This document shows positions 4,014 to 51,268 of a stretch of 64,000 nucleotides of DNA, piece after piece. Each line of letters opens with the position of its first letter. Position 1 is the first letter of the stretch. The notes under the pieces are model-generated. The model was not told the DNA's origin, did no database searches, and saw only the letters and a program-made list of their open reading frames with translations. The position numbers and the translations under genes were made by a program. The DNA comes from an uncultured Candidatus Saccharibacteria bacterium (GTDB taxonomy: Bacteria > Patescibacteriota > Minisyncoccia > Phycocordibacterales > Zambryskibacteraceae): contig CAZYVS010000002.1 of NCBI GenBank assembly GCA_964651655.1, positions 29,471-93,470 on the forward strand. Direction: 5' to 3'.

Positions 4014-4247
4014 TCATATAGATTGTCGAGTCGAGAACAATGCTAAAATCATTCGCCAAACATAGAGAGTGGGAATTTTCGCATAGGACCAGGTAACACT
4101 TAGTACGTCTTTTATGTAATTTATAGTATTTCTCCCCTGCTCTGAATTGGCCGCGTCAATAATAGACCAATTAAAAAAATATTTAAGGAGAGCTAGGGCG
4201 ATAACAACAAGTATCAACCAGCTGATAAAACCTTTACTTCTCGGCAT
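4014..4247 (-). CDS. Small hypothetical membrane protein
   Basis: 77-aa ORF with a hydrophobic N-terminus between the M23 peptidase gene and pyrB. Confidence 0.3.
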   Translation of the reverse strand: MPRSKGFISWLILVVIALALLKYFFNWSIIDAANSEQGRNTINYIKDVLSVTWSYAKIPTLYVWRMILALFSTRQSI

Positions 4248-4283
4248 AGTTATATTTTACCTCTCGACAAAGCTCGAGGCAAG

Positions 4284-5567
4284 TTAGAGAAGTGGCAGGT
4301 AGGCAAGAGGATCGAGATATGCGTCCCGGCCTTTTGCAATCGGAACAAAAACTTGCTTGCATCCGATGCTCGTCGTGAATTGTCTAATCTCCACACCTTG
4401 CGAGGCAAGAAGTCCAACATGAAGGTGCGGACCTTTAGAATATCCCGAACCATATGCGCCCGGTACTCCACCCGAATAGCCAATGATTTGTTTCGTTGTC
4501 ACCCTTTGGCCCTTTTGCACGAGCGAGGCGGAGAGATGGGCATAGATACTTGAAAGACCATTATCGTGTTTGACAAGTATCCAGCGTCCATACGAATAAC
4601 ATCCTCGCTGGTCGTCCGTATTGCCGGTACCTTCAACCACTCCGGAGAGCACAGAACGGATAGGAGTACCCATAGAAGCCCTTAAATCCAGACCGTTATG
4701 GAAACAGTCGGCGCCGCCATAAATGTTGCAATCCGACCTACCAAAACGTCCCGTAATAAAGACCTGATCCAAGGGCCAAGCAAGAATCCCCCGTTTGGGT
4801 TCCGGGAAAAGCGAAGGGTCAAGTGTGATACGCAATTCCTGTTCCAGTCTATATAGATCGGTTTCCGATTCTTTCTGCCGCGCCATGTTTTCTTGAATAA
4901 GCTTTTGATAAGCCGCTTCTTTATTTTTGGTCGCGGCCAGAAGCTTTTCTTTCGCTTTCTGATTCTCTTCCACAACCGATTTTTGGCCGCTCAACTGCCC
5001 GCGCAAACTCACTTGTTCTTCTTTAACTTTTTCTTTCTCCGCTTTTTCCTGATTGAGAATTCTGCGAGTTTCGCGCAGAGCGGAAATTTCTTCTTCCAAA
5101 CGAGTATTCAGACCGGCGAGTTGACTCCCGTCTCTCCAAATATCCGAGAGTTTGACGGAAGCCAGTAGTTGAAGTATCAATGGACGAGCGTCATATTCGG
5201 ACAAGGCCAAAATGGTGTCGGCAATGGCGGTTCGATATGTGATAATTTGTTGTTCTTTTTCGCTCATAGAATTCTCAAGCGAACGGATATTCAAATCGGT
5301 GGAAGTAATTTTCGATTGGGTAATGCTGATATCCTTGGCCAATTTCTTTTTGGTGGCGTCAAGCGATTTGACCGCGCTGCCGAGGGTCTGGCTCTCTTTA
5401 TTAATTTCATCCAGCTCGGACTGAAGCTTCTTTTGTTCTTCAACAAGCACTTCCCTATTTCTTCGAACTTTATCTATTTGTTGTTCTAATTCACTCGGAT
5501 TGGCGGCATTTAGAACAAACGGTATGATTAAAAAAATAATAAAAATGCTGATAAATCCCCCGTTCAT
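4284..5567 (-). CDS. M23-family peptidase with N-terminal coiled coil (EnvC-like murein hydrolase activator)
   Basis: Signal/TM segment, a long coiled coil, and a C-terminal LytM/M23 motif GPHLHVGL. Confidence 0.8.
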   Translation of the reverse strand: MNGGFISIFIIFLIIPFVLNAANPSELEQQIDKVRRNREVLVEEQKKLQSELDEINKESQTLGSAVKSLDATKKKLAKDISITQSKITSTDLNIRSLENSMSEKEQQIITYRTAIADTILALSEYDARPLILQLLASVKLSDIWRDGSQLAGLNTRLEEEISALRETRRILNQEKAEKEKVKEEQVSLRGQLSGQKSVVEENQKAKEKLLAATKNKEAAYQKLIQENMARQKESETDLYRLEQELRITLDPSLFPEPKRGILAWPLDQVFITGRFGRSDCNIYGGADCFHNGLDLRASMGTPIRSVLSGVVEGTGNTDDQRGCYSYGRWILVKHDNGLSSIYAHLSASLVQKGQRVTTKQIIGYSGGVPGAYGSGYSKGPHLHVGLLASQGVEIRQFTTSIGCKQVFVPIAKGRDAYLDPLAYLPLL

Positions 5568-6451
5568 TTAGTTCTTATTTTACCAAGATTGAAATGTTTC
5601 CGGTTCACCCAAGCCAGTTTTTTCTCATCAAAAATCGCACCCCCTTTATGAACTCTGGAGAAGTCAAAAACATTTATCAATTCATCAAGAGTAAAAATTT
5701 CCTGTTCCGTGCCGGGATTCCAGCCTAAAAGCGCGAGGTAATTGGTAATGGCTTCCGGCGAGTAGCCTTTACGGCGATAGTGATCAAGCGAAACCGACTC
5801 TCCGTGCTTGCGTTTGGAGAGTTTTGATCTGTCCGGAGCCAAAATCAGAGAGAGATGCGCGTACATTGGCCGCGGCGCGCCAATCGCTTCTTGGATTAAA
5901 ATTTGCCTGGGTGTGTTTGAGATGTGATCTTCGCCGCGAATGACATGTGTAATCCCCGATTCAAAATCATCGACTACAACAGCCAGATGATAAAGCGGTT
6001 CGTTAAGATTTCTGGCAATGATAAAATCTCCCAGTTCAGTGGTGTCAAACTCTACCTGACCACGAACTAAATCTTCAAAAACCACTTGTTTGTTAGGATT
6101 TCTAAAACGCACCACTTCCCTATTTTCACCTTCTATCTCCGTCGAAATATAAGCTTTGTCAGTTTGTATTAATTTATTCAAGTAAGACTTGTAAATGTCC
6201 GTGCGTTCAGACTGGTGCCAAAGCTCGCCATCCCATTCCAATTTAAGCCATTCGAGACTTTCAAAGATATCGCCTTCAAATTCTTTTTTTGATCTGGTCT
6301 TATCTGTGTCTTCCATTCTTAAAATAAATTTTCCATTATTTTTTCTAGCAAATAAAAAATTAAAAAGAGCCGTGCGCGCGCTACCAACGTGAAAACTGCC
6401 CGTCGGCGATGGCGCCATTCTTACTACTACTTTTTGATTATTGCCCGTCAT
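5564..6451 (-). CDS. Glutamyl-tRNA synthetase catalytic-domain paralog lacking the anticodon-binding domain (GluQ-like architecture)
   Basis: RMAPSPTGSFHVGSARTALFN (HIGH region), KLSKRKHG (KMSKS), VVVDDFESGITHVIRGEDH. Only 295 aa; 4-nt overlaps with murG and the M23 gene. Confidence 0.75.
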   Translation of the reverse strand: MTGNNQKVVVRMAPSPTGSFHVGSARTALFNFLFARKNNGKFILRMEDTDKTRSKKEFEGDIFESLEWLKLEWDGELWHQSERTDIYKSYLNKLIQTDKAYISTEIEGENREVVRFRNPNKQVVFEDLVRGQVEFDTTELGDFIIARNLNEPLYHLAVVVDDFESGITHVIRGEDHISNTPRQILIQEAIGAPRPMYAHLSLILAPDRSKLSKRKHGESVSLDHYRRKGYSPEAITNYLALLGWNPGTEQEIFTLDELINVFDFSRVHKGGAIFDEKKLAWVNRKHFNLGKIRTK

Positions 6452-8735: not shown

Positions 8736-9782
8736 TTAACTAATGAGCGCCAGAATAACACCAGTAATGGCACTAATGACAGAGACTATCCAGTAGCGCA
8801 TCACCACTTTTTCCCTCGGCCAACCCAAAGCCTGAAAGTGGTGATGAAGAGGTGTCACTCTAAAAATTTTTCTCTTAAAAAATTTATAGAAAATGTAAAC
8901 TTGAATAATGACAGAGGCGGAAGTGGCCACCAACGGCAAGGCAATAATGGGCAAAAGAAGCACCGAATCTGTGAGAAAAGCGATGACTGAAAGCGCTACA
9001 GTCAGGGCCATCATCCCCGTCTCCCCCATATAGAAACGCGCCGGCGGCACATTGAACCATAAGAAAGCAAGGATGGCGCCGGCGATGGCGCCGGCAAGAG
9101 CGGAAATATCAATTTGATTATTGACGAAGGCAATAACGGCGAAAGCGGTAAAGACCGAAGCCAGAACTCCGCCGGCCAGGCCGTCAATACCGTCAATCAC
9201 GGAAGTTGAGAAGGTGGCCAGCATAACAATAATAAAGAAAGGTATGAACCAAATCCCTAAATACCAATCGCCGTTAAACGGAATGTGAACGGAATTAAAA
9301 TCAAGTTTATAGTAGAACCACAAACTGATAGCGAGCCCGATACCGATAACTGAAATAGTTTTAATTTTGCGGTAAATCAGAGCATCTTGAGCAAAACGAC
9401 CATGGCCGTAAATATGCACCAGATCGTCTGCCAATCCTATCAAAGCGGCCAAGAAAAAGGCCCCCAACGGCACCAGAGTTTGCGAACGGGAAAAGAAATT
9501 CAGTTTTAAGGTCAAATCGGACGGCATCATTAATGAAAGAAAATAAATGGCGCCAACGGTCAAAAGCACCGCGACCCAAATTATTATTCCGCCCACTTTT
9601 GGGACGCTAAGTTCATGTTCTGTATTATGAATATTTTTAAAAGCCTCGGAAGTGCCGGCGTTCGTCCTGGGCGACTTTTTCCACATTTTGTACCGATAAA
9701 AATATCTGGTAAAAAAAGGAGTAATAAGAACACCTATAAAAAAGGTAAGAACCGTTGGTAAAATGATTTTTAGAATATCCAT
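8736..9782 (-). CDS. mraY: Phospho-N-acetylmuramoyl-pentapeptide transferase
   Basis: GLADDL and IDGIDGLAGG motifs. Confidence 0.9.
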   Translation of the reverse strand: MDILKIILPTVLTFFIGVLITPFFTRYFYRYKMWKKSPRTNAGTSEAFKNIHNTEHELSVPKVGGIIIWVAVLLTVGAIYFLSLMMPSDLTLKLNFFSRSQTLVPLGAFFLAALIGLADDLVHIYGHGRFAQDALIYRKIKTISVIGIGLAISLWFYYKLDFNSVHIPFNGDWYLGIWFIPFFIIVMLATFSTSVIDGIDGLAGGVLASVFTAFAVIAFVNNQIDISALAGAIAGAILAFLWFNVPPARFYMGETGMMALTVALSVIAFLTDSVLLLPIIALPLVATSASVIIQVYIFYKFFKRKIFRVTPLHHHFQALGWPREKVVMRYWIVSVISAITGVILALIS

Positions 9783-11599
9783 TATGGTTTCTGGCCGGCA
9801 ATAAAGACATTGTACCAGATTGCCAACACCAAAAGGAGATAGATTTTCCTCGAATTATCATCGCGGCCGGAGAGATGATGATTGATAAGATTATTTATAT
9901 ACGGGATATTCATATGTTTTTGAATATATGGATTTTCCAGAATGGTATTATAAATGTCTTTGTTATTACCGGTAAACCAATCTCTGACCGGCGTCGGGAA
10001 ACCGAGTTTCTTCCTCCGACGCACCGACTTTGGCAATATTTGTTTGAACGCCTCACGCAAGAGATATTTGGTAACCCCGCGTTTCCATTTAAATCTATCT
10101 GGAAAACTTGAAACCAGGCGCGCCACTTCGATATCCAGAAATGGCACTCTCAATTCAAGCGAATGCGCCATGGTCATTTTGTCCGCTTTAGCCAAAATAT
10201 CTCCCACAAGCCAAGTGTGAATATCAATGTACTGCATCTTGGTAGAATCGCTGAAATATGGCGCTCTGGCGTAGATATCACCGATAGAAAATTTTTTCTC
10301 TAACTTTTCTTTCCAAAGAAATTTAACTTCAGCGTTACTAAAAATAGAAGCGTTGCCGATATACCAGTCTTCAAGTTTCTGACTTGCTCTGGTGGCATAA
10401 TTTTTACCTCTAAAATTAAAAGGTAAATTGCTAATAAATTTCAAAATAATATTGGGTATCCAAGAGATCCATCGACGGGCAAATGGCTCCAGATAAATAT
10501 TGTAACCGCCAAAGAGTTCGTCAGCACCTTCGCCGGAGAGCACCACTTTGACATGTTTGGCCGCTTCTCGAGCCAAAAAATACAATCCGAGAGCTGAAGG
10601 ATCGGCTACAGGCTCATCAAAGTGCCATATCGCCTTGGGTAGATTGACAAAATATTCTTGCGCGCCAATAATAATTTCACGATGGTCGGTATTAAGCCAG
10701 TTGACGGTTTCTAACGCTTCCCTACCCTCGCTTAGAGATTCAAAACCAACGGTAAAAGTTTTAATTTTTTGTCCCGATTTTGTTCTCAAAAGTGTCGTAA
10801 CGATGCTCGAATCTATGCCGCCTGAAAGAAAGGCGCCGACGGGCACATCGGCAATCATATGGTGGGAAACGGAATCCTCCATCGTCTCAAAAATTTTTTT
10901 CTTAGTCTCTTTTTCATTCAATAAATCATTCGGCTGAAATTCAAATTTCCAATATCGTTTTATATCCATCTCGCCGGTCTTGGCGTTTATTTGCATCCAG
11001 TGAGCCGGCGGGAGTTTAAAAATGTTTTTGAAGAAAGTTTCTTCCAAAGGATTATATTGAAACGAAAGATAGTTAAAAATCGCCGCGTCATTTGCTTCCG
11101 GCCTGAAATCAGGCAAGGCAATAAAACTTTTTATTTCTGAAGAGAAAGCGGTGACTTGATTTCCTTTTTTCCAATAATATAGCGGTTTGATGCCAAAGAA
11201 ATCTCGCGCGATAAAAATCTTCTTATCTCTGGTATCGTAGATAGAGAAAGCAAACATACCGCGCAGATGCGGCAAAACCTCTTCTCCCCACTTTAGAAAT
11301 CCGGCTAAAATTACTTCGGTATCGCTATCAGTTTTAAACTTGTAATCGCTCAATGCACTTTTTATCTCCCTGTAATTATAAATTTCTCCATTGAAAATAA
11401 TCACCCACCGGCCATCACTGGAGACAATTGGCTGCCGGCCTCCGGCCAGATCAATGATGGAGAGTCGTCTCATTCCTAAAGCGACATAGTCATCGGAAAA
11501 AAATCCTGCATCATCCGGTCCGCGATGAAAAATGGCCTCGGTCATGTTTTGAATGCGGTCTCTTTCTTTCGGTTTGATTATTCCCGCTATGCCACACAT
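9782..11599 (-). CDS. asnB: Asparagine synthetase (glutamine-hydrolysing) family amidotransferase
   Basis: N-terminal MCGIAGI nucleophile and SGGIDSS PP-loop. Embedded in the peptidoglycan operon. Confidence 0.85.
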   Translation of the reverse strand: MCGIAGIIKPKERDRIQNMTEAIFHRGPDDAGFFSDDYVALGMRRLSIIDLAGGRQPIVSSDGRWVIIFNGEIYNYREIKSALSDYKFKTDSDTEVILAGFLKWGEEVLPHLRGMFAFSIYDTRDKKIFIARDFFGIKPLYYWKKGNQVTAFSSEIKSFIALPDFRPEANDAAIFNYLSFQYNPLEETFFKNIFKLPPAHWMQINAKTGEMDIKRYWKFEFQPNDLLNEKETKKKIFETMEDSVSHHMIADVPVGAFLSGGIDSSIVTTLLRTKSGQKIKTFTVGFESLSEGREALETVNWLNTDHREIIIGAQEYFVNLPKAIWHFDEPVADPSALGLYFLAREAAKHVKVVLSGEGADELFGGYNIYLEPFARRWISWIPNIILKFISNLPFNFRGKNYATRASQKLEDWYIGNASIFSNAEVKFLWKEKLEKKFSIGDIYARAPYFSDSTKMQYIDIHTWLVGDILAKADKMTMAHSLELRVPFLDIEVARLVSSFPDRFKWKRGVTKYLLREAFKQILPKSVRRRKKLGFPTPVRDWFTGNNKDIYNTILENPYIQKHMNIPYINNLINHHLSGRDDNSRKIYLLLVLAIWYNVFIAGQKP

Positions 11600-13867: not shown

Positions 13868-14452
13868 TCAGGTCTGATATCCAAGCAAAATATTAACTAT
13901 CTCGTCCCATGAATAAACTCTGCGAATAGGTGGTTTAACTTCACCTTGATTCCACGGCGCATCAAGGAGCAAGGCAGGTATACCGACACTAGCCACATCT
14001 TCCACATTATGCAGTGAATCGTCCACAAAAAATTCAATGCCTAAATTTTTACAAACTTCTCCCTTTGAACACTTTGGTCCATCTCCCTGAAAATGATTTG
14101 TAAAACGAACTCCGTCAAACATTTTTGGAAAATGTTTATCCAACCATTCTATTGTTCTGTTTTTCAATTCTTCAGGTTTAGCTGTAATTACATACAAATC
14201 GTGGTACCGTTTTAATTCCTTAATGCTTTCAACCGCTCCGTCTACTGGCAAAGCATTTAAATGTGCAAGGGAGGAGTAAAAATCAGACACTCTTTGTATT
14301 GCCTCTTCTCTTGTACAGCTCCACATTCCTTGTAGTTCATATGATTGTCTATGCCTCCTTTCGTGCTTTGTACCATAATTCATATTATGATAATGAAGAA
14401 GAATATCATTAAAATTTAACAACACATCATCAAGGTCAAAACCGATAGTCAT
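13868..14452 (-). CDS. 5'(3')-deoxyribonucleotidase-like HAD phosphatase
   Basis: N-terminal FDLDDVL (HAD motif I), NT5C-like. Confidence 0.6.
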   Translation of the reverse strand: MTIGFDLDDVLLNFNDILLHYHNMNYGTKHERRHRQSYELQGMWSCTREEAIQRVSDFYSSLAHLNALPVDGAVESIKELKRYHDLYVITAKPEELKNRTIEWLDKHFPKMFDGVRFTNHFQGDGPKCSKGEVCKNLGIEFFVDDSLHNVEDVASVGIPALLLDAPWNQGEVKPPIRRVYSWDEIVNILLGYQT

Positions 14453-15726
14453 GGGTTCAGTCTCTTAACGTCTCTTGGCAAATACGTGGCTTCGCGGACA
14501 TTTGGCAAGTCAATAATTTTCATAATAAAGCGACCTGGCCCAATGCCGGCCCCGCCATGCGGCGGACAGCCATAACGGAAGAAGTTTAAATAATCCTTCA
14601 GCAACTCAAGGTCCATATTTTTCTCTCTGGCCTGTTTTTCCAAAATTTCTACTCGGTGCTCGCGTTGAGCCAGAGTCGTGATTTCAATTCCTCGATAAAG
14701 CAAATCCGCTCTTCGACTTCTATCAGAATCCTCATCTAAACGCATATGGTAGAAAGCACTCTTGGATTTGTGATAATCAGTGATAAAGACAAATTCATGT
14801 TCGTGTTCTTTGAGAATATATTCCGAAATGGCCCGCTCTTCTTCCGGTGAAAGATCGTGCTCATCGGGCGAAGAAATACCAAGACTAGATAAAATCTTTT
14901 TTGTTTCCACTATTGTTATTCTTGGAAATGGTCGGGTTGGTATGGTGATATTTAAATCCGGAAAAGTTTTCAATAATTGTTCAAATCCACTGACAATCAT
15001 CCCCTCTTCTTCATCCATGACATCATAGTGGTCCTTGATGTAGGAAACCTCAAAATCCCAACCGGTAAATTCCGTAAGATGACGAGTGGTGAAAGACGGC
15101 TCGGCGCGAAACACGGGAGACACCATGAAAACCTTTTCGAAACCGGATGCCATAGCCATCTGCTTGTAAAACTGCGGTGACTGCGCCAGATACGCCTTGC
15201 GGTCGAAATAATTGACTTCAAAAACTTCCGCGCCAGATTCCGACGGTACAGACATCAGGGCCGGTGGATAGAGTTGGATGAAATTATTCTCGTCCCAATA
15301 TTTGCGCCAGCCCTTCTCAAATTCCGTCCAGACTTTGAAAATTTTTGCCTTCTCCGGTTTACGCAAATCAAGCCAACGATAATCAAAACGTATAGGCGCT
15401 TCCGTCTCCCCGCCCGAACGTGCCGAACCACGTTCGGTACGGGCGGGTTCTCCACTCTTAACCACAACCGGTATCGGTAATTCCGGTTCCGCCCGGCTCA
15501 ACACCTCAATCTTAATCGGATGCATTTCATGGCCACCGGGCGCCTGCGGAGCATCTATCATTTCCCCGGTCGCTCTGATAACCGACTCAAGTGTCAAATT
15601 CTTAGCGGCTTCAAATTCCGGATTATCCGTCGTCACCACCAGTTGAGTCAGGCCTTGTAAGTTACGAACAATAATAAAAATTATTTTCGATTGAACGCGC
15701 AAAGCATGTATAAACCCTTGAATCAT
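14449..15726 (-). CDS. aspS: Aspartyl-tRNA synthetase, archaeal/eukaryal type (class IIb)
   Basis: Motif 2 FRAEPSFTTRHLTEFTGWDFE matches the FRAEDSNTHRHLTEF type. Motif 3 is GGAGIGPGR. N-terminal OB fold; about 425 aa. Confidence 0.8.
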   Translation of the reverse strand: MIQGFIHALRVQSKIIFIIVRNLQGLTQLVVTTDNPEFEAAKNLTLESVIRATGEMIDAPQAPGGHEMHPIKIEVLSRAEPELPIPVVVKSGEPARTERGSARSGGETEAPIRFDYRWLDLRKPEKAKIFKVWTEFEKGWRKYWDENNFIQLYPPALMSVPSESGAEVFEVNYFDRKAYLAQSPQFYKQMAMASGFEKVFMVSPVFRAEPSFTTRHLTEFTGWDFEVSYIKDHYDVMDEEEGMIVSGFEQLLKTFPDLNITIPTRPFPRITIVETKKILSSLGISSPDEHDLSPEEERAISEYILKEHEHEFVFITDYHKSKSAFYHMRLDEDSDRSRRADLLYRGIEITTLAQREHRVEILEKQAREKNMDLELLKDYLNFFRYGCPPHGGAGIGPGRFIMKIIDLPNVREATYLPRDVKRLNP

Positions 15727-16712
15727 GATATTTTTAATCCAACTTTTTCTCTAATTATTTTCATTTTTTTCTCCGCCCTTTCTCGCGCGACTTGCCCGCC
15801 ATCCCGTAAAACTTCTAATACAATATTCCTATCTTTTTCCAATTGCTGTTTCTTCTCGCGCATAGGCCTGATGAAATTCTTAAGGTCTTCTATGAGCATC
15901 TCTTTCAATATTTTATATTTTCCTTTGTTTTCTTCATATAAATCATTGAGCGACTTTTTATCTTTAAGTAAGGCATGGATAGTATAAACGTTTTCCGGAC
16001 GATCACCTGATGAGTCAGTGACAATACTTATCACCGCCTTCTCTATCTCATCATCGCTCGCAAAAAGCGGAATAGTATTACCGTAACTTTTAGACATTTT
16101 TCTGCCATCCGTACCGCGCACCATCGCTGCTCCCTCCAAGATAAGCGGTTCCGGTAATTTAAAAGTCTCGCTTGCCCCGTCCTTGGCGGGGCCAAATATC
16201 CGATTGAATTTCTCTGCCGTATCGCGCGCAATTTCTACATGCTGTTTCTGGTCCTGTCCAACAGGCACCACATCGGCATCCTGAATAAGAATATCGGCGG
16301 CCATCAGCAATGGATAATCAAATAATCCGACGTTGGGTTCTTTATAGTTAGCTACGGCATCCTTATAAGCATGCGCCCGCATCAGATACGGCACAGTGGT
16401 CAAACAATTAAAAATCCAGCCGAGTTCGGTTACTTGAGGAACATCTGATTGAAGAAACAAAGTGGTTTTGTTTGGGTCTAATCCTATCGCAAGATATGTG
16501 GCGGCAACATCAAAAGTGTTTTCTTCTAAACCCTTCCTCTTTTCACCATCACTTGTTACCGCGTTGGTTAGAGCATGATAATTGGCTACAAAAACATAAC
16601 TCTGGTATTTATCTTGAAGCTCTACAAATTGCTTAAGAGCGCCAAAATAGTTACCTATGTGAGGTTTACCGGTTGGTTTTACTCCAGAGAGTAATATTTG
16701 CGTCGCCAACAT
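15723..16712 (-). CDS. trpS: Tryptophanyl-tRNA synthetase
   Basis: KPTGKPHIGNYFGAL (HIGH) and KMSKS motifs. Confidence 0.9.
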   Translation of the reverse strand: MLATQILLSGVKPTGKPHIGNYFGALKQFVELQDKYQSYVFVANYHALTNAVTSDGEKRKGLEENTFDVAATYLAIGLDPNKTTLFLQSDVPQVTELGWIFNCLTTVPYLMRAHAYKDAVANYKEPNVGLFDYPLLMAADILIQDADVVPVGQDQKQHVEIARDTAEKFNRIFGPAKDGASETFKLPEPLILEGAAMVRGTDGRKMSKSYGNTIPLFASDDEIEKAVISIVTDSSGDRPENVYTIHALLKDKKSLNDLYEENKGKYKILKEMLIEDLKNFIRPMREKKQQLEKDRNIVLEVLRDGGQVARERAEKKMKIIREKVGLKIS

Positions 16713-18362: not shown

Positions 18363-18440
18363 ACGCCATTAATTATATTGGGGTTCGTTAGAATAGTCTA
18401 GTATATGTATAATTACTCAAAAATCTGCTATAATTTCGGT

Positions 18441-19481
18441 ATGCGAAAATCAAAAACAACAAAGAAATTTCTATCTAGGCCGGTAGAACATATAGATATT
18501 AAAAAACTTGATCTCACGAAGACAGTAAAAGCCATGTCTAAAATGTCCTTTTCTGCGAGAGATGCAGCCAACGCAGCAGAAATGTATGCTCGAATGGTTA
18601 AAGATAATGATTGCGTTAATATTTTAACACTTGCTGGTAGTACCAGTGCAGCTGGTTGTATGCAAATTTATACAGACATGGTAAGACACAAAATGATTGA
18701 TGTGGTCGTAGCCACGGGTGCAAGTATTGTAGATATGGATTTTTTTGAAGCATTAGGATTTAAACATTACCAAGGCAGCCCCATTGTCGACGACAAAATG
18801 TTACGTAGTTTATATATCGACAGAATTTATGACACGTACATCAATGAAAACGATCTGCAGAAATGCGATGCGGCAATTATGGAAATTGCTAACGGCCTGA
18901 AAACACATCCTTATTCATCACAAGAATTTATAAGAGAAATGGGCAGATATTTGACAAAACGTTCAAAAAAAGACGACTCTCTTATACAAGCCGCGTTCGA
19001 AATGGGTGTTCCAATATTTTGCCCGGCGTTCTCAGACAGCAGTGCCGGTTTTGGTCTCGTAATGCATCAAGTAAAAAATCCGAGAGACCATGTTTCTATT
19101 GATTCGGTCAAAGATTTCTATCAGCTGACCCAAATAAAAATCAAAGCTAAAAATACAGGTTTGCTCATGATAGGTGGAGGAGTGCCCAAAAACTTCGCTC
19201 AAGATACTGTGGTGTGCGCTGAAGTGTTGGGACACAATGTTCCCATGCATAAGTACGCTATACAAATAACTGTTGCCGATGTCAGAGATGGCGCATGTTC
19301 TAGTTCCACCTTAAGAGAAGCTAACTCCTGGGGTAAGGTTGATAGCTTATCAGAACAAATGGTGTATGCGGAAGCGACTACAGTATTACCAATGATTGCC
19401 AGTTATGTATATCACCAAAAAGATTGGAAAAGGCGAACAAAAAAAGATTTTAACTCTGTATTAATAAAATTGTCCAGTTAA
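18441..19481 (+). CDS. Deoxyhypusine synthase-like (DHS family) protein
   Basis: VVATGASIVDMDFFEALGFKHYQG matches the DHS family core. An extended -10 (TGCTATAAT) sits 6 nt before the ATG (leaderless). Confidence 0.6.
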   Translation: MRKSKTTKKFLSRPVEHIDIKKLDLTKTVKAMSKMSFSARDAANAAEMYARMVKDNDCVNILTLAGSTSAAGCMQIYTDMVRHKMIDVVVATGASIVDMDFFEALGFKHYQGSPIVDDKMLRSLYIDRIYDTYINENDLQKCDAAIMEIANGLKTHPYSSQEFIREMGRYLTKRSKKDDSLIQAAFEMGVPIFCPAFSDSSAGFGLVMHQVKNPRDHVSIDSVKDFYQLTQIKIKAKNTGLLMIGGGVPKNFAQDTVVCAEVLGHNVPMHKYAIQITVADVRDGACSSSTLREANSWGKVDSLSEQMVYAEATTVLPMIASYVYHQKDWKRRTKKDFNSVLIKLSS

Positions 19482-22994: not shown

Positions 22995-23067
22995 GGGCTC
23001 ATAGTAAAGTGGTATTACACGGCATTCGCATTGCCGAGTCCCGGGTTCAATCCCCGGTGAGTCCACC
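22995..23067 (+). tRNA. tRNA-Ala (anticodon CGC)
   Basis: Manual fold: acceptor GGGCTCA/TGAGTCC with G3:U70, D stem GTAA/TTAC, anticodon stem CGGCA/TGCCG, loop TTCGCAT, T arm CCGGG-TTCAATC-CCCGG, discriminator A. Confidence 0.85.
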
Positions 23068-30426: not shown

Positions 30427-31755
30427 TCATTTGACGGGAAGTTTCTTCAAGAAGATATCGGCGCCATTCTCGGGAAAAGAACTTTTCCAAAATGGTCTGA
30501 TGGTGGCGGTCGCCTTAGCAACAGTCGGATAATTATTAAGAATGGAAGGAAGATCCTGTTTACTTCTCCCCAATAAATCGGCTTTTAGGGCCACCTCGTC
30601 CACATTCCATTCTATCGTCGTCTCACCCCTAACGGAAAAACTGATTTTGTTTGAAGACAGCGGATTAATTGACGCGTTGTTTGTCAAAGCAAATTCAAGC
30701 GAGTCGAGTTTATCGATATTCAGCGATTCACCGGCCGCTAAAGTGACTTTGTCAACAACCAATTCACGAGACAGATCGCTTCTTTTGAACATAACTCCGG
30801 CCAAGTCAGCAGACATATTTATCATCACCCCTTCCCCGTTGGTTGGAACCGATTGAGGCAACTCTTTAAAAGTGACCGAGGAAAGAGACGGCAACAAGAT
30901 AAAGTCTTCCGGCACTTGAGCTTTGGCTTCGGAAATTAATCCTTCTTTGAGCGCGGTTTCAAGTTGCTCTCTGACTCGCGCCCCATCTTCACTTTTGATT
31001 ATCTTTTCCGTACCGGAAAAGCCGCCGGACATTTCGGTCTTAGAACGAGCATACACGGAGGCAAACAGCGAAGTGCCCTTAAGCCCGGGAAGAGTAAAAT
31101 CGGCAAACCCGATATTGAATCCTTGGCCGGGACGTTCGGCATAGACCACCACTTCCAGAGCGCCCAATTTTTCTTCACCGTTGACCAGTTTCTTGCCGGG
31201 AATAACAATGGCATCCGGGACTTGATAAATTTTACCGTCCGGGGTTTCAAAACGCGTCGTGGCCCTCAACCTCTGTTCAACGATACTGGCATTATAGACA
31301 ACAATGGTGCCGCTAGCTTTTCTTTCTACTTCCTGTTCTCCGGATGTGGACACTTCTTGACCTTTCTCCATAGAAAGTTTAACAATGCTAAAAAGAAGTC
31401 CGCTCTCGCCCTCCTTGCGCGCCTCATACAAGCCACCGTCAAAAGACACTGCTTGAGATTTAGGCACATAGGCCAACGTGGCGCCGCCAAATACGGAAAG
31501 TATAGGAAAAATGAGTATCAGGACGGCGATGCCGATTGCTATCCACTTGCGTCTGCCCCGGCTATTGGCGGAACTACCGCCGTTTGGCGGAAAATTGAAA
31601 CTATTATCAGGCGATGAATCATTAAACGAATAATTTTCTTTTGAAGTTTGGGGCATTTCGCGACGCTCGATTCTGCGACGTCCCTCGGGAATAGGAATGT
31701 CCCGAATGCTTCTTTTTCTCTCTGGCACGACTATGTCTTCAATATGTTTCGGCAT
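30427..31755 (-). CDS. Hypothetical membrane-anchored protein (442 aa) at the position usually held by secY/adk/map
   Basis: Basic N-terminus, one TM helix, and a large extracytoplasmic domain with no recognisable motifs. Confidence 0.5.
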   Translation of the reverse strand: MPKHIEDIVVPERKRSIRDIPIPEGRRRIERREMPQTSKENYSFNDSSPDNSFNFPPNGGSSANSRGRRKWIAIGIAVLILIFPILSVFGGATLAYVPKSQAVSFDGGLYEARKEGESGLLFSIVKLSMEKGQEVSTSGEQEVERKASGTIVVYNASIVEQRLRATTRFETPDGKIYQVPDAIVIPGKKLVNGEEKLGALEVVVYAERPGQGFNIGFADFTLPGLKGTSLFASVYARSKTEMSGGFSGTEKIIKSEDGARVREQLETALKEGLISEAKAQVPEDFILLPSLSSVTFKELPQSVPTNGEGVMINMSADLAGVMFKRSDLSRELVVDKVTLAAGESLNIDKLDSLEFALTNNASINPLSSNKISFSVRGETTIEWNVDEVALKADLLGRSKQDLPSILNNYPTVAKATATIRPFWKSSFPENGADIFLKKLPVK

Positions 31756-31770
31756 GTCAAAAATTATAAC

Positions 31771-31796
31771 TTATTTATAGTGAGCTTGTCGAATTA
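31771..31796 (-). promoter_or_regulatory. Conserved intercistronic motif, copy e (alaS stop to the hypothetical gene)
   Basis: Coding-strand TAATTCGACAAGCTCACTATAAATAA, then a second TTATAAT 7 nt before the ATG. Confidence 0.55.
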
Positions 31797-33068
31797 TTTT
31801 TTAAATTTACGCCTTCCACCGGAACGCGAGATAGTTTGGTGTTTGCTCATTTCTTTGTCAAAAGCGGCGCGGTCGATTTTTATGCCCTTCTCCCCGGCCA
31901 GCTCTTCAGTCAATTCTATCGGGAAACCATAACTTGTGAAGAGGATAAAAGGATCAACCCCCTTATCAAACTGTTTGAGGCCTGATTCCAAAGTTTTGCC
32001 GAATTTTTCAATTTCCGTTGAGATAATATCCGCTATCGCCGGATTAAAGACATAAAGTCCCTTATAACTTTCATGATTAGAAACGGCTTTTGCCAGAGAA
32101 TTTATTGTTTTTAGATCACCTCCTATTTTTCTAACATGAACATAAGCGCGGCGAAGAAGCCGTCGTAAAATGTAACCCCGGCCGGTATTTGACGGTAAAA
32201 CACCGTCGCTTAGCGCAAAGACCGATGTTCGTATATGGTCGGCGATAATTCGTTTAGATCGGGTGAGAACGGAATCAAAACCATCAAACACCGAAATAAG
32301 CGGCGCAAACAGATCGGTGTCAAAAATATTATTTTTATTTTGAAGCGCCATAGTTAAACGCTCCAGCCCGGCGCCCGTATCAACATTTTTTTGTGATAAT
32401 TTATTTGTAATTTTTCCGTCTTTCTTCTCATATTCCATAAAGACATCGTTCCAAACTTCTACTACTTTCTGTTCTTTATCGGCCCTTTCATATTCTTGTT
32501 TGGTTAAATTTCCCAAGCCTTCGAGAGTAACGTCATAAAACATTTCCGTGTCCGGTCCGCACGGTCCGCTTTCTCCCGCGCTCCACCAATTTGATTTGGC
32601 TCCCAAAAAAAAGATTCTGTTCTTCGGCATATACTTCTGCCAAATTTTAAAAGCTTCTTCATCTTTCGGGGCATTTTCATCTCCCTCAAACACAGTAACG
32701 TAGAGTCGTTTAGGATCCAGGCCAAATCCTTCCTCTTTGTTTGTCAATAATTCATAACTCCACTGAATTGCTTCTTCTTTAAAGTAATCACCTAGAGACC
32801 AGTTACCAAGCATCTCAAAAAAAGTATCGTGAGTATTATCACCGACTTCGTTAATATCTTGGGTGCGTACACACTTCTGAATATTTACCAAACGTCTGCC
32901 TTGCGGATGTTTCTTACCCATAAGATATGGCACTAGAGGTTGCATCCCGGCGGTGGTGAATAGAACTGAAGAGTCATTCTCCGGCACGAGCGAGGCCGAC
33001 GGGATAACTGTGTGTCCCCGGTTCTCGAAAAAAGTCAGGAATCGCCGCCGAATTTCTTCAGATTGCAT
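31794..33068 (-). CDS. alaS: Alanyl-tRNA synthetase, N-terminal catalytic plus tRNA-recognition domains only (no editing or C-Ala domains)
   Basis: EIRRRFLTFFENRGHTVIPSASLVPENDSSVLFTTAGM and ADHIRTSVFALSDGVLPSNTGRGYILRRLLRR align to AlaRS residues 1 to about 455. The ORF ends there. Confidence 0.8.
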   Translation of the reverse strand: MQSEEIRRRFLTFFENRGHTVIPSASLVPENDSSVLFTTAGMQPLVPYLMGKKHPQGRRLVNIQKCVRTQDINEVGDNTHDTFFEMLGNWSLGDYFKEEAIQWSYELLTNKEEGFGLDPKRLYVTVFEGDENAPKDEEAFKIWQKYMPKNRIFFLGAKSNWWSAGESGPCGPDTEMFYDVTLEGLGNLTKQEYERADKEQKVVEVWNDVFMEYEKKDGKITNKLSQKNVDTGAGLERLTMALQNKNNIFDTDLFAPLISVFDGFDSVLTRSKRIIADHIRTSVFALSDGVLPSNTGRGYILRRLLRRAYVHVRKIGGDLKTINSLAKAVSNHESYKGLYVFNPAIADIISTEIEKFGKTLESGLKQFDKGVDPFILFTSYGFPIELTEELAGEKGIKIDRAAFDKEMSKHQTISRSGGRRKFKK

Positions 33069-33086
33069 TAGATGAATATAACACAA

Positions 33087-33668
33087 TTAAACGAGAGTCT
33101 TAAGCACTTTGAAATCTTCTTTAAGAGTCTCGAGAAGATGCTGGTTATAAATGGCCGCCGCCGGATGATAGAAAGGCGTAAATTTAAAATCCTTCGCCTG
33201 AAATACTTTGCCATGTAGAGCGCTGATGGATGAAAGCTCATTTTCAAGACCGTAACGATTCATGACGTATTGCATGGAAAACCGGCCAAGCGTGGCTATA
33301 ACTTTCGGTTTAATGATTCCAATTTGACGATCCAGAAACGGGGCGTAAATCTCTATCTCGTCCGGATAGGGATCACGGTTTCCGGGCGGGCGGTCTTTGA
33401 CAACATTGGTTACGTAGACGTTTTTTCTTTCTATACCGACGTGAGCCAGAAGCAGATCAAGCACCTTCCCCGCCCGCCCGCAAAACGGCCTGCCGGTTTT
33501 GGCCTCATTTTCTCCCGGTGCCTCGCCGATAAACATCACTATCGCCGAATGATTGCCTTCCCCTATTACCGGGAAATATTTATTTTGCACCCGCTCGGCA
33601 TAAAGCGGCGAAGCCTTGAGGGCGACAACCTCATTCTTAATTTTTTTTAATTCCTCATCACAATTCAT
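33087..33668 (-). CDS. Uracil-DNA glycosylase, family 4
   Basis: GEAPGENEAKTGRPFCGRAGKVL motif. Confidence 0.8.
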   Translation of the reverse strand: MNCDEELKKIKNEVVALKASPLYAERVQNKYFPVIGEGNHSAIVMFIGEAPGENEAKTGRPFCGRAGKVLDLLLAHVGIERKNVYVTNVVKDRPPGNRDPYPDEIEIYAPFLDRQIGIIKPKVIATLGRFSMQYVMNRYGLENELSSISALHGKVFQAKDFKFTPFYHPAAAIYNQHLLETLKEDFKVLKTLV

Positions 33669-34497
33669 TTATTTCGTTCATGACCGGTTCAATATTAAAA
33701 TTCTTACCAAGAAATTCATTCAATAATTTAGGATGCTTCTTAACATCCGAACAGAGAACAATCCTCTTCTCAAGAAGCGTCTTCTTATCGGCAGTCGAAA
33801 GCGAAACCAGGCAAGTCACGGGATGAAGCGCTTCGTTTTCAATCATCTCTTGCAAACCGGCATTTTCCGGATAATTCCATCCTATCATGGTTAAATTATT
33901 ACAAAGACCATAATGAATGGCCGTACTTGAAAATTTGGTATTGGTGACAAGCCAGCAATCGGTAACGTGCCTATTAGAACCGCCATAATCAAAAACGTTG
34001 CCGCGTAAATCGTCAAACCTTGCCTTGATATAAAGAACCACTTTCAAATCGGACTTTGTACCCAGACCATTATGAAATTTTGCTTCAATCATAATAAGTT
34101 CTTTTTCATTGTAGGCCACCACGTCTACTTCGTGCGCCACACATTCGCCAAGCACGGTTTGACGAGTCTGACACTTATAACCTTTGGCTTCAAGCACTCT
34201 GGCGATAAAATCTTCAAACGGAAAGCCTGAAGGTCCGAGATCCATCACCGCCCGACGAAGAGAATAACTTCTGGCAATCGGCTTGCTTATTTTTTGCAGA
34301 ATGGAAAAGGCGTGTCTGTAGATATCATTGGTTGTCATGTCGTCATGGAGTTCCGGCAAAATATGAGACATCACCTGCTCTACAGCTTCCTCCGTTGCGC
34401 CGGCATGAAAAAGAGAGTATCGGAGTTTTTCTTCATCAAAAATTTCCCGCTCTCCATTTGCCTTGAGAATTGTTACTTGTTTGGTTAGTTGCACCAT
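33658..34497 (-). CDS. ATP-cone domain fused to a PD-(D/E)xK (Mrr-like) restriction-endonuclease-fold domain
   Basis: The N-terminus ILKANGEREIFDEEKLRYSL is ATP-cone-like. The central FEDFIARVLEAKGY...VDVVAY...IMIEAKF has a D...ExK core. TATAAT lies 6 nt before the ATG. Confidence 0.55.
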   Translation of the reverse strand: MVQLTKQVTILKANGEREIFDEEKLRYSLFHAGATEEAVEQVMSHILPELHDDMTTNDIYRHAFSILQKISKPIARSYSLRRAVMDLGPSGFPFEDFIARVLEAKGYKCQTRQTVLGECVAHEVDVVAYNEKELIMIEAKFHNGLGTKSDLKVVLYIKARFDDLRGNVFDYGGSNRHVTDCWLVTNTKFSSTAIHYGLCNNLTMIGWNYPENAGLQEMIENEALHPVTCLVSLSTADKKTLLEKRIVLCSDVKKHPKLLNEFLGKNFNIEPVMNEINEL

Positions 34498-34593
34498 TCT
34501 AGTATTATACCTCACGACAATATCTCATTCATCACTCCGCCACTGAAACAGATTTTTTCACACACTCACCCTCGTTCATAGTTAAAATATCAT

Positions 34594-39602: not shown

Positions 39603-41810
39603 TCAAGTAGCAATGCTGATAATCTTATTGGGCACAATAATTATTTTTTTAGGCTCTTTGTTTTTCAACCATTTTTGAACTTCCGGCAGAGCCAGAGCGT
39701 TCGTTTTAATTTCTTCCTCACTCTGACCACGAATAACAAGTAAATCGGCTCTTACTCTGCCATCAATTTGAATAGCTACAGTGATTTCATTTTTGACCAA
39801 TCGTTTTGAATCGTAAGTCGGCCAACTTTGAATATGAACGGAGTCCTTGTGTCCAAGAGAAGCCCACAATTCTTCGGTAATATGCGGAGCAAGAGGCGCA
39901 AGAAGCAAAATTAGAGTCTCAAATTCTTTTTGGGAAATTTCTTTTTGTTTATCCAGAGTGTTGACATAAATCATCAGGGCGGATACGGCAGTGTTGAATC
40001 CCATGGTTTCTATATCATCAGATACTTTCTTTATTGTCTGATACATCAAAGTCTCGCTCTTTAAGGTCTGACCTTTCAAAACCTTGGATTGTAACCTCCA
40101 CACTTTTTCCAAAAACCGGCGCGGCCCAACAAGCGCGTCCTCGCTCCAGGCGATAGTGTGTTCAAAGGGCCCCATAAACATCTCGTAGAGCCGCAGGGTG
40201 TCCGCGCCAAAACGTTCTACTATCGTATCGGGGTTAATGACATTACCCCTTGATTTGCTCATCTTCTCTCCCCCTTCGGCCAGAATCAGTCCGTGTGAAG
40301 TGCGCTTTTTATACGGTTCGCTTGTGGAAACAAGTTTCAAATCGTAGAGAAATTTATTCCAAAACCGCGAATATAATAGATGGAGCACGGTGTGCTCCAT
40401 ACCACCGTTATACCAGTCGACAGGCATAAAATGCTTGAAATTTTCAATTTGTAATTTCCAATTTTCAATAGAAACGGAATGTATAAATCCTACCTTATCA
40501 AAAAGATACGCGAGAAAATACCAAGAAGAGCCGGCCCAATTGGGCATAACATCAGTTTCTCTTTTAGCTCTTCCACCACACTTTGGACATATCACATTCA
40601 CCCATGCATCAATGTTCGCTAACGGTGATTCCCCATCCTCTCTCGGTTGATATTTTTCAACTTGAGGCAGTTCTACCGGCAAATCTTTCTCCGGCACCGG
40701 CACCACGCCGCATTTACCGCAATGAATGACCGGTATCGGTTCACCCCAATAACGCTGACGTGAAAAAATCCAATCACGTAGTTTGTATTTGGTGACTCTT
40801 TTACCAAAATCTTCAAATCCGGCTCTTTTGTATTCATCGATAATTGATAGATTGTGCTTTTTGGCAAACACCATATCGCGTTCGTCATCAGCTGGCACAC
40901 CCATAATCGCGCCAGTACCATAATCGGACATCACATATTCTGCTTCCCAAACCGGAATTTTTTCTTTCGTGGCAGGATTAATGGCATATTCTCCAGTGAA
41001 TTTGTCCTCCTTACCCGCCTTAACTAAGAAAGTAGCTCCGAAAATAGTGTCGGGTCGTGTGGTAAACACTTTTATAGGTTCAAGCTGTAAGCTGTTAGCT
41101 GAAAGCTGAAAGCTGATTTCTACTCCTTCGCTTCTACCGATCCAATTTTTCTGTTGAGTTTTGACCCGTTCCGGATAATCTACATCGTCTAAATCTTTTT
41201 CAAGTCTTTCCGCATATTTGGTAATGGCAAGCATCCATTGTTCTTTCTCTTTTTGCTCAACAGATGCGCCACAGCGTTCGCACCCATTGTCAATTACTTC
41301 TTCGTTGGCTAAACCAATTTTACAGTTCGAACACCAATTGATAGGAATCTTGGCCTTGTACGCCAAACCATTTTCAAGAAATTTTAAAAATATCCATTGC
41401 GTCCATTTATAATACTTTGGATCGGTTGTATTTATTTCCCGTGACCAATCAAAAGAAAGCCCGAGAGACTGAATTTGTCGGCGAAAAGTATCCGTATTTT
41501 CTTTTGTCACTACTTTAGGGTCCTTGCCGGTCTTGAGAGCATAATTTTCCGTCGGCAAACCAAAGGCATCCCAACCGATGGGATATAAAACATTAAACCC
41601 TTCCATTCGGCGTTTGCGAGAGACAATATCCATCGCTGTATAACTCCTGATATGCCCGACATGCAGACCGTCTCCGGATGGATAAGGAAATTCTATTAGC
41701 GTGTAATATTTTGGTTTCTTAGAAGAATCCTGTGCTTGGTAGACGCCAGATTTCTCCCACTCCTTTTGCCATTTCCCTTCAATTTCTTTAGGATTGTACT
41801 CCTTAGCCAT
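39603..41810 (-). CDS. leuS: Leucyl-tRNA synthetase lacking most of the CP1 editing domain
   Basis: HVGHIRSYTAMD (HIGH) and KMSKS. Only about 60 aa separate TTRPDT from GTGAIMGVPADDERD, versus about 180 in canonical LeuRS. The protein is 735 aa in total. Confidence 0.9.
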   Translation of the reverse strand: MAKEYNPKEIEGKWQKEWEKSGVYQAQDSSKKPKYYTLIEFPYPSGDGLHVGHIRSYTAMDIVSRKRRMEGFNVLYPIGWDAFGLPTENYALKTGKDPKVVTKENTDTFRRQIQSLGLSFDWSREINTTDPKYYKWTQWIFLKFLENGLAYKAKIPINWCSNCKIGLANEEVIDNGCERCGASVEQKEKEQWMLAITKYAERLEKDLDDVDYPERVKTQQKNWIGRSEGVEISFQLSANSLQLEPIKVFTTRPDTIFGATFLVKAGKEDKFTGEYAINPATKEKIPVWEAEYVMSDYGTGAIMGVPADDERDMVFAKKHNLSIIDEYKRAGFEDFGKRVTKYKLRDWIFSRQRYWGEPIPVIHCGKCGVVPVPEKDLPVELPQVEKYQPREDGESPLANIDAWVNVICPKCGGRAKRETDVMPNWAGSSWYFLAYLFDKVGFIHSVSIENWKLQIENFKHFMPVDWYNGGMEHTVLHLLYSRFWNKFLYDLKLVSTSEPYKKRTSHGLILAEGGEKMSKSRGNVINPDTIVERFGADTLRLYEMFMGPFEHTIAWSEDALVGPRRFLEKVWRLQSKVLKGQTLKSETLMYQTIKKVSDDIETMGFNTAVSALMIYVNTLDKQKEISQKEFETLILLLAPLAPHITEELWASLGHKDSVHIQSWPTYDSKRLVKNEITVAIQIDGRVRADLLVIRGQSEEEIKTNALALPEVQKWLKNKEPKKIIIVPNKIISIAT

Positions 41811-49641: not shown

Positions 49642-50115
49642 TCAAATAGATGAAAATAAGGTGATTATTCCCATAGTCGTCAGAACCACTATCACTCCGG
49701 CTATTACCACACCGAGAAATATCAGAGGAACCGCCTTACGAAAGGGGATGCCAAATACATACGCCACGAGAGAAGCCGTCCAGACGCCGGTAAATGGCAG
49801 GGGTATTGCCACCAGTACCACAAGAGTAAATTCTTTTAATCTTGCAAATTTCTGTTCATGATTATTTCTAGTTCTACTTAAAAAGGAGGAGAAAGTTTTT
49901 CTAAATAAATCAGATTTTTCTGAAAGAAAATCGCCGATCGCGCCGATTAGCGGCACTAGAAAAAAAGCCGGGACCATATTACCGATAACCGCTACGAAAA
50001 AAGCCATCCAAGCAGAAAAGCCGTAAACCGTCATGGCAACAGGAATCGCTCCTCTAAGTTCCACGACCGGCAACATGGAGATGATGAGAATATATATTAT
50101 CTCGGATATCATCAT
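49642..50115 (-). CDS. Small multidrug-export-like membrane protein (PF06695-like)
   Basis: ELRGAIP signature near the N-terminus and 4 TM segments. Confidence 0.6.
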   Translation of the reverse strand: MMISEIIYILIISMLPVVELRGAIPVAMTVYGFSAWMAFFVAVIGNMVPAFFLVPLIGAIGDFLSEKSDLFRKTFSSFLSRTRNNHEQKFARLKEFTLVVLVAIPLPFTGVWTASLVAYVFGIPFRKAVPLIFLGVVIAGVIVVLTTMGIITLFSSI

Positions 50116-51040: not shown

Positions 51041-51116
51041 TGGTGGACCGTGGGAGATTCGAACTCCCGACCTCCACATTGCAAATGTGGCGCTCTACCA
51101 ACTAAGCTAACGGCCC
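51041..51116 (-). tRNA. tRNA-Ala (anticodon TGC), with CCA encoded
   Basis: Reverse complement: GGGCCGT-TA-GCTTAGTTGGTAGAGC-G-CCACA-TTTGCAA-TGTGG-AGGTC-GGGAG-TTCGAAT-CTCCC-ACGGTCC-A-CCA, with G3:U70. Confidence 0.85.
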
Positions 51117-51194: not shown

Positions 51195-51267
51195 GGGCCT
51201 GTAGCTCAATTGGTAGAGCGCAGCTATGGCATAGCTGAGGTAAGGGGATCGTAGCCCCTCAGGTCCA
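51195..51267 (+). tRNA. tRNA-Ala (anticodon GGC) with an atypical T-loop
   Basis: GGGCCTG-TA-GCTCAATTGGTAGAGC-G-CAGCT-ATGGCAT-AGCTG-AGGTA-AGGGG-ATCGTAG-CCCCT-CAGGTCC-A, with G3:U70. The T-loop has A54/T58 where T54/A58 is usual. Confidence 0.7.
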
Positions 51268-51268
51268 C

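Follow-up and report, generated by a model that had tools for sequence, protein, structure and literature searches.

A predicted bacterial mini-AlaRS without an editing domain at the alaS locus of a Zambryskibacteria-type Parcubacterium

Editing by alanyl-tRNA synthetase (AlaRS) is regarded as nearly indispensable, being conserved throughout life, with small defects leading to disease in mice and humans. An alaS gene that stops where the editing domain should begin raises the question whether such a gene encodes a working synthetase and what became of its proofreading. A gene of this kind was found in a stretch of 64,000 nucleotides of contig CAZYVS010000002.1 (GenBank assembly GCA_964651655.1, positions 29,471 to 93,470), in the following referred to as the window, whose source organism is an ultra-small groundwater bacterium, a Zambryskibacteria-type Parcubacterium of the candidate phyla radiation (CPR). 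Based on homologues, gene order and structural comparisons, we consider that it probably codes for a working AlaRS at the ancestral alaS locus, derived from the small-AlaRS of its phylum when the editing domain was cleanly deleted in place, i.e., by domain loss and not by fission. The positions of the gene, its predicted domains, its neighbors, and the tRNA genes concerned are given in Table 1.

Table 1. Location of the mini-alaS gene, its predicted domains, adjacent features, and tRNA-Ala genes in the window
Feature	Position	Strand	Evidence
Mini-alaS coding sequence, 424 aa plus TAA stop (31794-31796)	31794..33068	-	Open reading frame, sequence, Pfam, PDB matches, AlphaFold
Class II catalytic domain, residues 1 to ~245 (boundary approximate)	32334..33068	-	Alignment to 9jc7 and 3hxu
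Helical tRNA-recognition (ATL) domain, residues ~246-424 (approximate)	31797..32333	-	Model secondary structure, alignment
Uracil-DNA glycosylase (UDG) family gene, upstream of alaS	33087..33668	-	Pfam UDG, E 3e-30; conserved in relatives
Spacer of 38 nt from alaS stop to next gene, holds GTTATAAT	31756..31793	-	Sequence
Single-pass membrane protein, 442 aa (context only, not AlaRS)	30427..31755	-	Hydrophobic segment WIAIGIAVLILIFPILSVFGG
tRNA-Ala(CGC), G3:U70, CCA not encoded	22995..23067	+	ARAGORN, Rfam 62.9 bits, acceptor stem read
tRNA-Ala(UGC), G3:U70, CCA encoded	51041..51116	-	ARAGORN, Rfam 73.1 bits, sequence
tRNA-Ala(GGC), G3:U70, CCA not encoded	51195..51268	+	ARAGORN, Rfam 54.4 bits, sequence

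The coding sequence starts with an ATG at position 33068 (MQSEEIR, as its homologues start), and use of a TTG further upstream at position 33086 would result in 430 aa. The latter length had been given in a preceding sequence-only reading, which equated the end of the protein with about residue 455 of E. coli AlaRS. While the count holds for the TTG start, the end lies nearer to E. coli residue 446, with residue 415 of the window protein being aligned to chain residue 436 of the E. coli structure 3hxu. Pfam tRNA-synt_2c covered residues 5-418 (profile positions 1-432 of 552, E 2e-126), and no second Pfam domain was detected in the scan of the protein. The best sequence matches in the PDB were AlaRS catalytic fragments (E 5e-85 to 5e-82), namely Methylomonas AlaRS429 (9jc7/9jdn, E 5e-85), in which residues 1-431 of the 435-residue chain pair with residues 1-420 of the window protein, and also the fragments of A. 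aeolicus (1riq) and E. coli 1-441 (3hxu). The sole domain and these alignments bear out the earlier proposal that the protein comprises aminoacylation and tRNA-recognition domains only. An AlphaFold model computed with 24 short homologues as input reached a mean pLDDT of 84 and a pTM of 0.83, and its superposition on the E. coli fragment 3hxu revealed a TM-score of 0.82. The catalytic domain holds R68, V209, L224, and the motif 3 region D230-T-G-A-G-L-E-R, of which R68, V209, L224, and D230-T-G232 are invariant across the 24 short forms (equivalents used: E. coli R69 and D235-x-G237; Methylomonas V204 and L219). At its C-terminal end, the model displays a long helix (residues 400-423) with the tail ...SRSGGRRKFKK, followed by TAA. 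This tail pairs with ...SRAGAEQKFK of longer homologues, which continue with GGLAGHS.

The 120 best homologues were split into two length classes, one of about 575-612 aa with tRNA-synt_2c and tRNA_SAD, and one of about 396-435 aa with tRNA-synt_2c only. The long class represents small-AlaRS, the usual AlaRS of the phylum with 575-600 aa, for which an NCBIfam model of 595 aa exists (NF002436/PRK01584). In CPR, DPANN, and other groups, small-AlaRS consists of catalytic, ATL, and editing domains, while C-Ala and the cradle-loop barrel are absent (Alvarez-Carreno et al., bioRxiv 10.1101/2023.05.29.542759). Since C-Ala is missing lineage-wide, only the editing domain of about 155 aa is specifically missing in the window protein. 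The former statement that the editing domain as well as C-Ala is absent was thus correct as such, but E. coli was the wrong baseline for it. Over their N-terminal 420 aa, the window protein and the 575-600-aa small-AlaRS proteins were 65-76% identical. Altogether, 29 of the 120 homologues were shorter than 500 aa. Twenty-six of them are truly short (396-435 aa) and end 1 to about 10 residues past KFK or MFK, e.g., ...HKFKK*, ...NKFKN*, or ...MFKL*, which is the point where the long forms run on (KFKGGLAGHS...HTATHLLH...CGGPH). Two further short proteins (P0049 and P0100) end ...MFKGGLAN, a few residues beyond the junction, and are ambiguous, and P0039 (497 aa) is cut within the editing domain. 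As its C-terminal third is missing, the window protein falls short of the NCBIfam equivalog cut-offs, with 467.9 bits for NF002436 (cut-off 529; the long form P0011 passes with 699.9 bits) and 430 bits for TIGR00344 (cut-off 457).

The identical 424-aa protein was found on six contigs from five assemblies, i.e., GCA_016185455.1 (MBI2674073.1, Candidatus Zambryskibacteria) and four Logan runs. Therefore, the short gene is not an artefact, and a frameshift or assembly error was ruled out. On comparison with its counterpart in locus L006, dN/dS was about 0.09, dS being close to saturation, and protein identity was 79%, with flanking housekeeping genes being 75-88% identical. This pattern points clearly to purifying selection on the short alaS. 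The stop codon is TAA in the window and in the related loci L006 and L008, and TGA in L098, each of them being followed by the start of the next gene. Judged by these sequence comparisons, the window gene is to be seen as a real, selected, and recurrent bacterial mini-AlaRS.

In a neighbor-joining tree of the N-domains, 23 short forms fell into one large group, in which the long form P0007 is nested, while the short forms P0031/P0050 and P0059 branched apart among long forms. P0059 (GCA_039739955.1) and P0031 are both located mid-contig, on 61 kb and 15 kb, respectively, and no tRNA_SAD gene appeared near either of them in the gene lists of their contigs. This tree, which is based on neighbor joining only, indicates at least three losses of the editing domain. 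Five substitutions were typical of the clade of short forms, none of them in the active-site pocket; compensatory changes in the active site were thus ruled out.

The surroundings of the gene suggest how the short form arose. Short-form loci share the order MnmA ... ATP-cone/Mrr - UDG - alaS - membrane protein of about 440 aa - infA - (rpmJ) - rpsM - rpsK - rpsD - rpoA. The long-form locus L016, whose sequence starts just upstream of alaS, displays the same order from alaS to rpoA as the window, L006, and L008. Since short and long forms occupy the same locus, the short form would have arisen via an in-place deletion, leaving a stop 1 to about 10 codons after KFK, where GGLAGHS...HxxxH...CGGPH normally follows. 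The gene downstream of alaS had been described as an unrelated membrane protein, with the missing half not encoded adjacently. This was verified, as the 442-aa protein had no Pfam or NCBIfam match and the flanks were negative with a profile hidden Markov model (HMM) built from 206 editing domains, which also detected no editing-domain coding potential in any frame of the downstream spacer. A homologue of this membrane protein is located 3' of short and long alaS alike in relatives. Destruction of the editing domain through insertion of this downstream gene was ruled out, since the same gene follows the long-form alaS in L016. The -10-like GTTATAAT is conserved right after the alaS stop in the window, L006, and L008, ahead of the membrane-protein gene. 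Two genes upstream of alaS, all relatives examined carry a homologue of a 285-aa protein (33658-34515, minus strand) composed of an ATP-cone and an Mrr-like restriction-endonuclease core. When a leader RNA was sought near alaS with Rfam, only the three tRNAs came up.

A second kind of alaS, in the following called type B as opposed to type A of the window and its closest homologues, was identified at the same locus in close relatives. Loci L018, L019, and L023 belong, among the best 80 loci of a GTDB scan, to the genomes nearest to the window by their flanking genes, with identities of 70-82% for UDG, 84-90% for infA, and 79-83% for RpsM, and their gene order is identical. Their type-B alaS codes for 544-549 aa, and related forms in L070 and L079 for 511 and 530 aa, respectively. 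In all five loci, the gene lies at about positions 1350-2983 and is preceded by UDG, as in the short-form loci. While the type-B N-domain shared only 39-44% identity with that of the window (NFSFGGYWK versus NWSLGDYFK), the type-B editing domain reached 57-74% identity with the one of P0007, a long form of type A (72-74% in L018 and L019), a similarity matching that among type-A editing domains. A dissimilar N-domain combined with a similar editing domain means that the two gene halves have different histories and are joined at KFKGGLA. From these alignments, it appears that type-B lineages swapped the N-domain and kept the native editing domain, and that the window lineage dropped the editing domain.

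With respect to function, the mini-AlaRS would charge tRNA-Ala as a monomer devoid of C-Ala via the acceptor stem, i.e., via G3:U70. We infer this from the fact that E. coli 1-441/461, A. aeolicus N453, Methylomonas 1-429, and the mini-AlaRS of Tupanvirus (TuAlaRS) do so; activation of alanine and charging of tRNA-Ala or acceptor-stem helices was demonstrated for this module with A. aeolicus N453 and TuAlaRS (PMC10036535) and with Methylomonas AlaRS429 (PMC12143591), and the engineered fragments activate Ala and Ser or charge minihelices. All three tRNA-Ala genes of the window revealed G3 opposite T70 on direct reading in addition to their detection by ARAGORN and Rfam, just as had been stated before. 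To our knowledge, G3:U70 is kept in essentially all tRNA-Ala. The three isoacceptors are the sole tRNA genes in the 64 kb, those for UGC and GGC being divergent neighbors 78 nt apart. The GGC tRNA, which had the lowest Rfam score, shows an apparently unusual T-loop ATCGTAG (A54 and U58, not T54 and A58).

As to fidelity, the residues connected with serine misactivation are unchanged, with D230 corresponding to Methylomonas D225 and E. coli D235, V209 to Methylomonas V204, and L224 to Methylomonas L219. The pocket is thus canonical and permissive for serine and glycine, so that some Ser- and Gly-tRNA-Ala would be expected, which the enzyme itself, predicted to be unable to edit in cis, would not clear.

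The missing domain was sought with four editing domains as tblastn queries and, in six-frame translations, with the 206-domain profile HMM without filters (--max). No editing domain was found in any frame of the window by either method. One marginal tblastn match (49882-50106, plus strand, E 0.01) lies antisense to a membrane-protein gene and was rejected. A Pfam scan revealed no tRNA_SAD, DTD, or YbaK among the 64 open reading frames of the window that were scanned, and there was no second alaS in the 64 kb. Likewise, no editing domain was detected in the flanks (up to ±10 kb) of the short alaS genes in L001-L009 and L098. To find free-standing proteins, the nearest long form's editing domain served as query in a database search confined to proteins below 280 aa. 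Most candidates that were followed up did not hold. P0141 and P0154 were frameshift products of a poor assembly, P0161 a gene in fragments on a contig of 4x coverage, P0239 a contig-edge sequence beside a partial upstream open reading frame, and other short matches were contig-end fragments. P0167, a tRNA_SAD protein of 175 aa seen in loci L012 and L013 (positions 4001-4528; 19 contigs read), is a genuine free-standing protein, though its surroundings, which include SpoVT and sortases, are Firmicutes-like, and it was rejected as a CPR fission product; its identity to the CPR-type editing domain is 60%. A gene of the small-AlaRS type was also seen in many Clostridia metagenome-assembled genomes, e.g., in L037, L072, and L080.

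The GTDB scan covered one genome per species, used exact peptide patterns from one query, and yielded the best 80 editing-domain loci. Of these, 78 were fused to an AlaRS N-domain directly upstream and two were cut by contig ends, so that none of the 78 informative loci carried a free-standing native editing domain. As about one fifth of the close relatives are short, a fission product should be expected among these loci, and its absence makes a split in the manner of Nanoarchaeum unlikely. Such a split had been one option of the sequence-only reading and is now disfavored, also because the tRNA-recognition domain is complete. Hence, the native editing domain appears not to be kept as a separate gene, in line with domain loss rather than gene fission. 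We lean slightly towards the view that mischarged tRNA-Ala is simply tolerated, as in other bacteria with reduced genomes and defective editing. Tentatively, and with more doubt, this may be extended to several Parcubacteria lineages, in which a minimal AlaRS would be the sole AlaRS, without cis editing and without AlaX, after repeated loss and with the serine-permissive site unchanged.

Several observations weigh against a sole, working, and non-proofreading AlaRS. Among the residues that read G3:U70, N303 of E. coli is kept (N294), but the Asp contacting G3 in E. coli (D400) is replaced by Thr378 in the window protein. At this position, Thr, Ser, Gln, or Asn were seen in the long and type-B forms read, and TuAlaRS, which has Thr there, is still specific for G3:U70 (PMC10036535). 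Relatives of the protein were named "alanine--tRNA ligase-related protein" by the annotation pipeline PGAP, as a consequence of scores below the NCBIfam equivalog cut-offs; this label probably hides the true AlaRS of such genomes. In the long forms, the editing domain is highly conserved (54-75% identical between distant lineages) and was kept even where the N-domain was replaced, as in type B. Editing thus seems to matter in this phylum, and its loss should need compensation. Moreover, the GTDB scan rested on the exact peptide patterns of one query and on the best 80 loci, among which the genome of the window is not demonstrably included. Genomes of this group are expected to comprise about 0.5-1 Mb, of which the 64 kb inspected probably cover much less than a fifth. 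The genome may therefore encode a distantly related AlaX, a DTD, or a second alaS elsewhere.

This leads to the strongest of the alternatives, editing in trans, which we regard as rather unlikely. Here, Ser-tRNA-Ala would be cleared by a free-standing protein of the AlaX type whose gene lies beyond the window, be it a fission product that was relocated or an AlaX-S, -M, or -L that is unrelated, and DTD could possibly clear Gly-tRNA-Ala, so that loss of the cis domain would be neutral. AlaX proteins are known from all three domains of life (PMC12143591), a pre-existing factor would explain at least three losses of the cis domain, free-standing tRNA_SAD kin of the small-AlaRS editing domain exist in other lineages, such as P0167, and most of the genome lies outside the 64 kb seen. 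However, nothing of this kind was found in the window, within 10 kb of alaS in L006, L008, and L098, or near P0031, and conserved fission products should have surfaced in the GTDB scan given the share of short relatives, whereas all informative loci were fused. Furthermore, no short editing-domain protein from the top 120 matches was located on the contigs of 96, 110, 217, 118, and 61 kb that carry a short alaS, and we found no paper linking AlaX to CPR bacteria.

Less probable still, and in our view improbable, is a complete second AlaRS of type A or type B that does the housekeeping, with the short form being accessory or having another role. Two very different alaS types, with N-domains 39-46% identical, do circulate among closely related genomes, and both the name given to the relatives at NCBI and the scores below the equivalog cut-offs fit such a paralogue. 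On the other hand, the short gene sits exactly where the single alaS, be it type-A long or type B, sits in relatives. Short, long, and type-B forms at one and the same locus look like alternatives and not like additions. The invariant catalytic residues, the low dN/dS, and the lack of a second alaS in the window also speak against a paralogue, and duplicate synthetases are rarely kept in the small genomes of CPR bacteria. That the short alaS is an artefact or pseudogene, be it through a frameshift, through a truncation that inactivated it recently, or through a stop codon subject to read-through, can be dismissed almost entirely, for although fragmented and frameshifted alaS genes are known from some assemblies (e.g., ERZ1286166 and a contig with 4x coverage), five assemblies agree in sequence, 26 diverged homologues share the end point, purifying selection is strong, the downstream frames hold no editing-domain remnant, and TAA or TGA stops are each followed by the start of the next gene.

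Taking the window protein as a mini-AlaRS that lost its editing domain in place, the closest known counterpart in architecture is TuAlaRS with 461 aa (Antika et al. 2023, PMC10036535), which was called the only natural synthetase with the aminoacylation domain alone in 2023 (PMC10036535). The window protein likewise consists of the aminoacylation domain only, i.e., of catalytic and tRNA-recognition parts, and both have a predicted long C-terminal helix at the end, Thr at the position of E. coli D400, and a cognate tRNA-Ala with G3:U70. In a fold search, giant-virus proteins were found with E 1e-33 and a TM-score of 0.76, the viral models being about 31% identical; kin of this kind included proteins from Terrestrivirus (464 aa) and Yasminevirus (513 aa). 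Nevertheless, the two do not share a common descent, as the viral enzyme derives from a eukaryotic host AlaRS, while the window protein is bacterial and derives from the CPR small-AlaRS. In TuAlaRS, Asn and Asp are both replaced (P321 and T416), whereas the window protein keeps Asn (N294) and only Asp is replaced (T378). In addition, the window gene belongs to a cellular genome, where it occupies the housekeeping alaS locus without a host AlaRS as backup, and activity was demonstrated experimentally for TuAlaRS, while that of the window protein is deduced.

With small-AlaRS, the window protein has the lineage, the genomic locus, and the lack of cradle-loop barrel and C-Ala in common. The definition of small-AlaRS, however, includes a fused editing domain (tRNA_SAD, HxxxH...CxxxH), and the window protein ends where this would begin. 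The split AlaRS of Nanoarchaeum equitans likewise has aminoacylation on a polypeptide without editing domain and C-Ala, but there, the split lies inside the tRNA-recognition domain, and specificity for G3:U70 requires the beta subunit, encoded elsewhere, which contains the rest of this domain together with editing domain and C-Ala (PMC10036535). In contrast, the tRNA-recognition domain of the window protein is complete up to the boundary given above, and searches of the window and of the regions flanking short genes revealed no partner. The engineered fragments of E. coli (1-441/461, 3hxu), A. aeolicus (N453, 1riq), and Methylomonas (AlaRS429, 9jc7) have nearly equal boundaries and TM-scores of 0.8-0.86, but are laboratory truncations, while the window protein is natural and evolutionarily maintained. 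Finally, Li et al. in 2011 (PNAS) reportedly described editing-defective synthetases in Mycoplasma and other reduced genomes. The synthetases concerned are LeuRS, PheRS, and ThrRS, mostly with point degeneration, and these cases resemble the present one as reduced-genome bacteria with lost synthetase proofreading. We know of no loss of a whole AlaRS editing domain in a cellular organism. Our literature search revealed no description of a cellular mini-AlaRS, and the small-AlaRS preprint was its sole result on AlaRS or AlaX in CPR bacteria.

If the window protein were indeed the sole AlaRS, with editing neither in cis nor in trans, its host would be the first cellular life known without AlaRS proofreading. 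This would bear on the tolerance of ultra-small symbionts to mistranslation. It was asked in 2025 why a change raising fidelity, such as L219M, was never selected (PMC12143591). The mini-AlaRS lineages still carry Leu at this position and may thus be seen as a natural experiment on the serine-mischarging paradox without cis editing. A bacterial mini-AlaRS would also be a cellular test case for recognition by the acceptor stem alone, i.e., for the "operational RNA code".

Other synthetases of the window were inspected as well. LeuRS (39603-41810, minus strand, 735 aa) has a shortened CP1 editing domain, in which TTRPDT and GTGAIMGVPADDERD are retained. Its match to the Pfam editing domain is partial, the best stretch covering profile positions 79-137 of 185. 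A general loss of editing was not supported by LeuRS, as its CP1 is short but the motifs TTRPDT and GTG...D are kept. A second truncated synthetase was identified at 5564-6451 (minus strand), a GluRS-like protein of 295 aa with the catalytic domain only. It passes NCBIfam gltX_bact with 387 bits (cut-off 290), matching the model up to position 317 of 470, and its scores for GluQRS models are below the cut-offs. Both a minimal GluRS and an enzyme resembling GluQRS are conceivable. Of its 120 best homologues, 75 have 276-311 aa and 45 have 393-458 aa with an anticodon-binding domain. Seven short ones were read and end with ...KKLAWVNRKHFN plus a few residues at the boundary of the anticodon-binding domain. 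One of the short forms, P0242 (292 aa, 84% identical), was taken to lie on one contig of 109,819 bp together with the short AlaRS P0004, as their longest contigs are equal in length, and on the same grounds the long GluRS-like P0347 was assigned to the 264,961-bp contig of L018, where the AlaRS is of type B and has an editing domain.

Further genes related to tRNA include TGT (60260-61498) and an archaeal-type non-discriminating AspRS, which passes the NCBIfam cut-off for aspartate--tRNA(Asn) ligase (412 bits versus 353). The latter adjoins TrpRS and lies near a glutamine-dependent asparagine synthase, the three genes being located at 14449-15726, 15723-16712, and 9782-11599, respectively, all on the minus strand. 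Lastly, a deoxyhypusine synthase homologue was detected in this bacterial genome at 18405-19481 (Pfam DS, E 2e-94), encoded on the plus strand and thus opposite to most of its neighbors.

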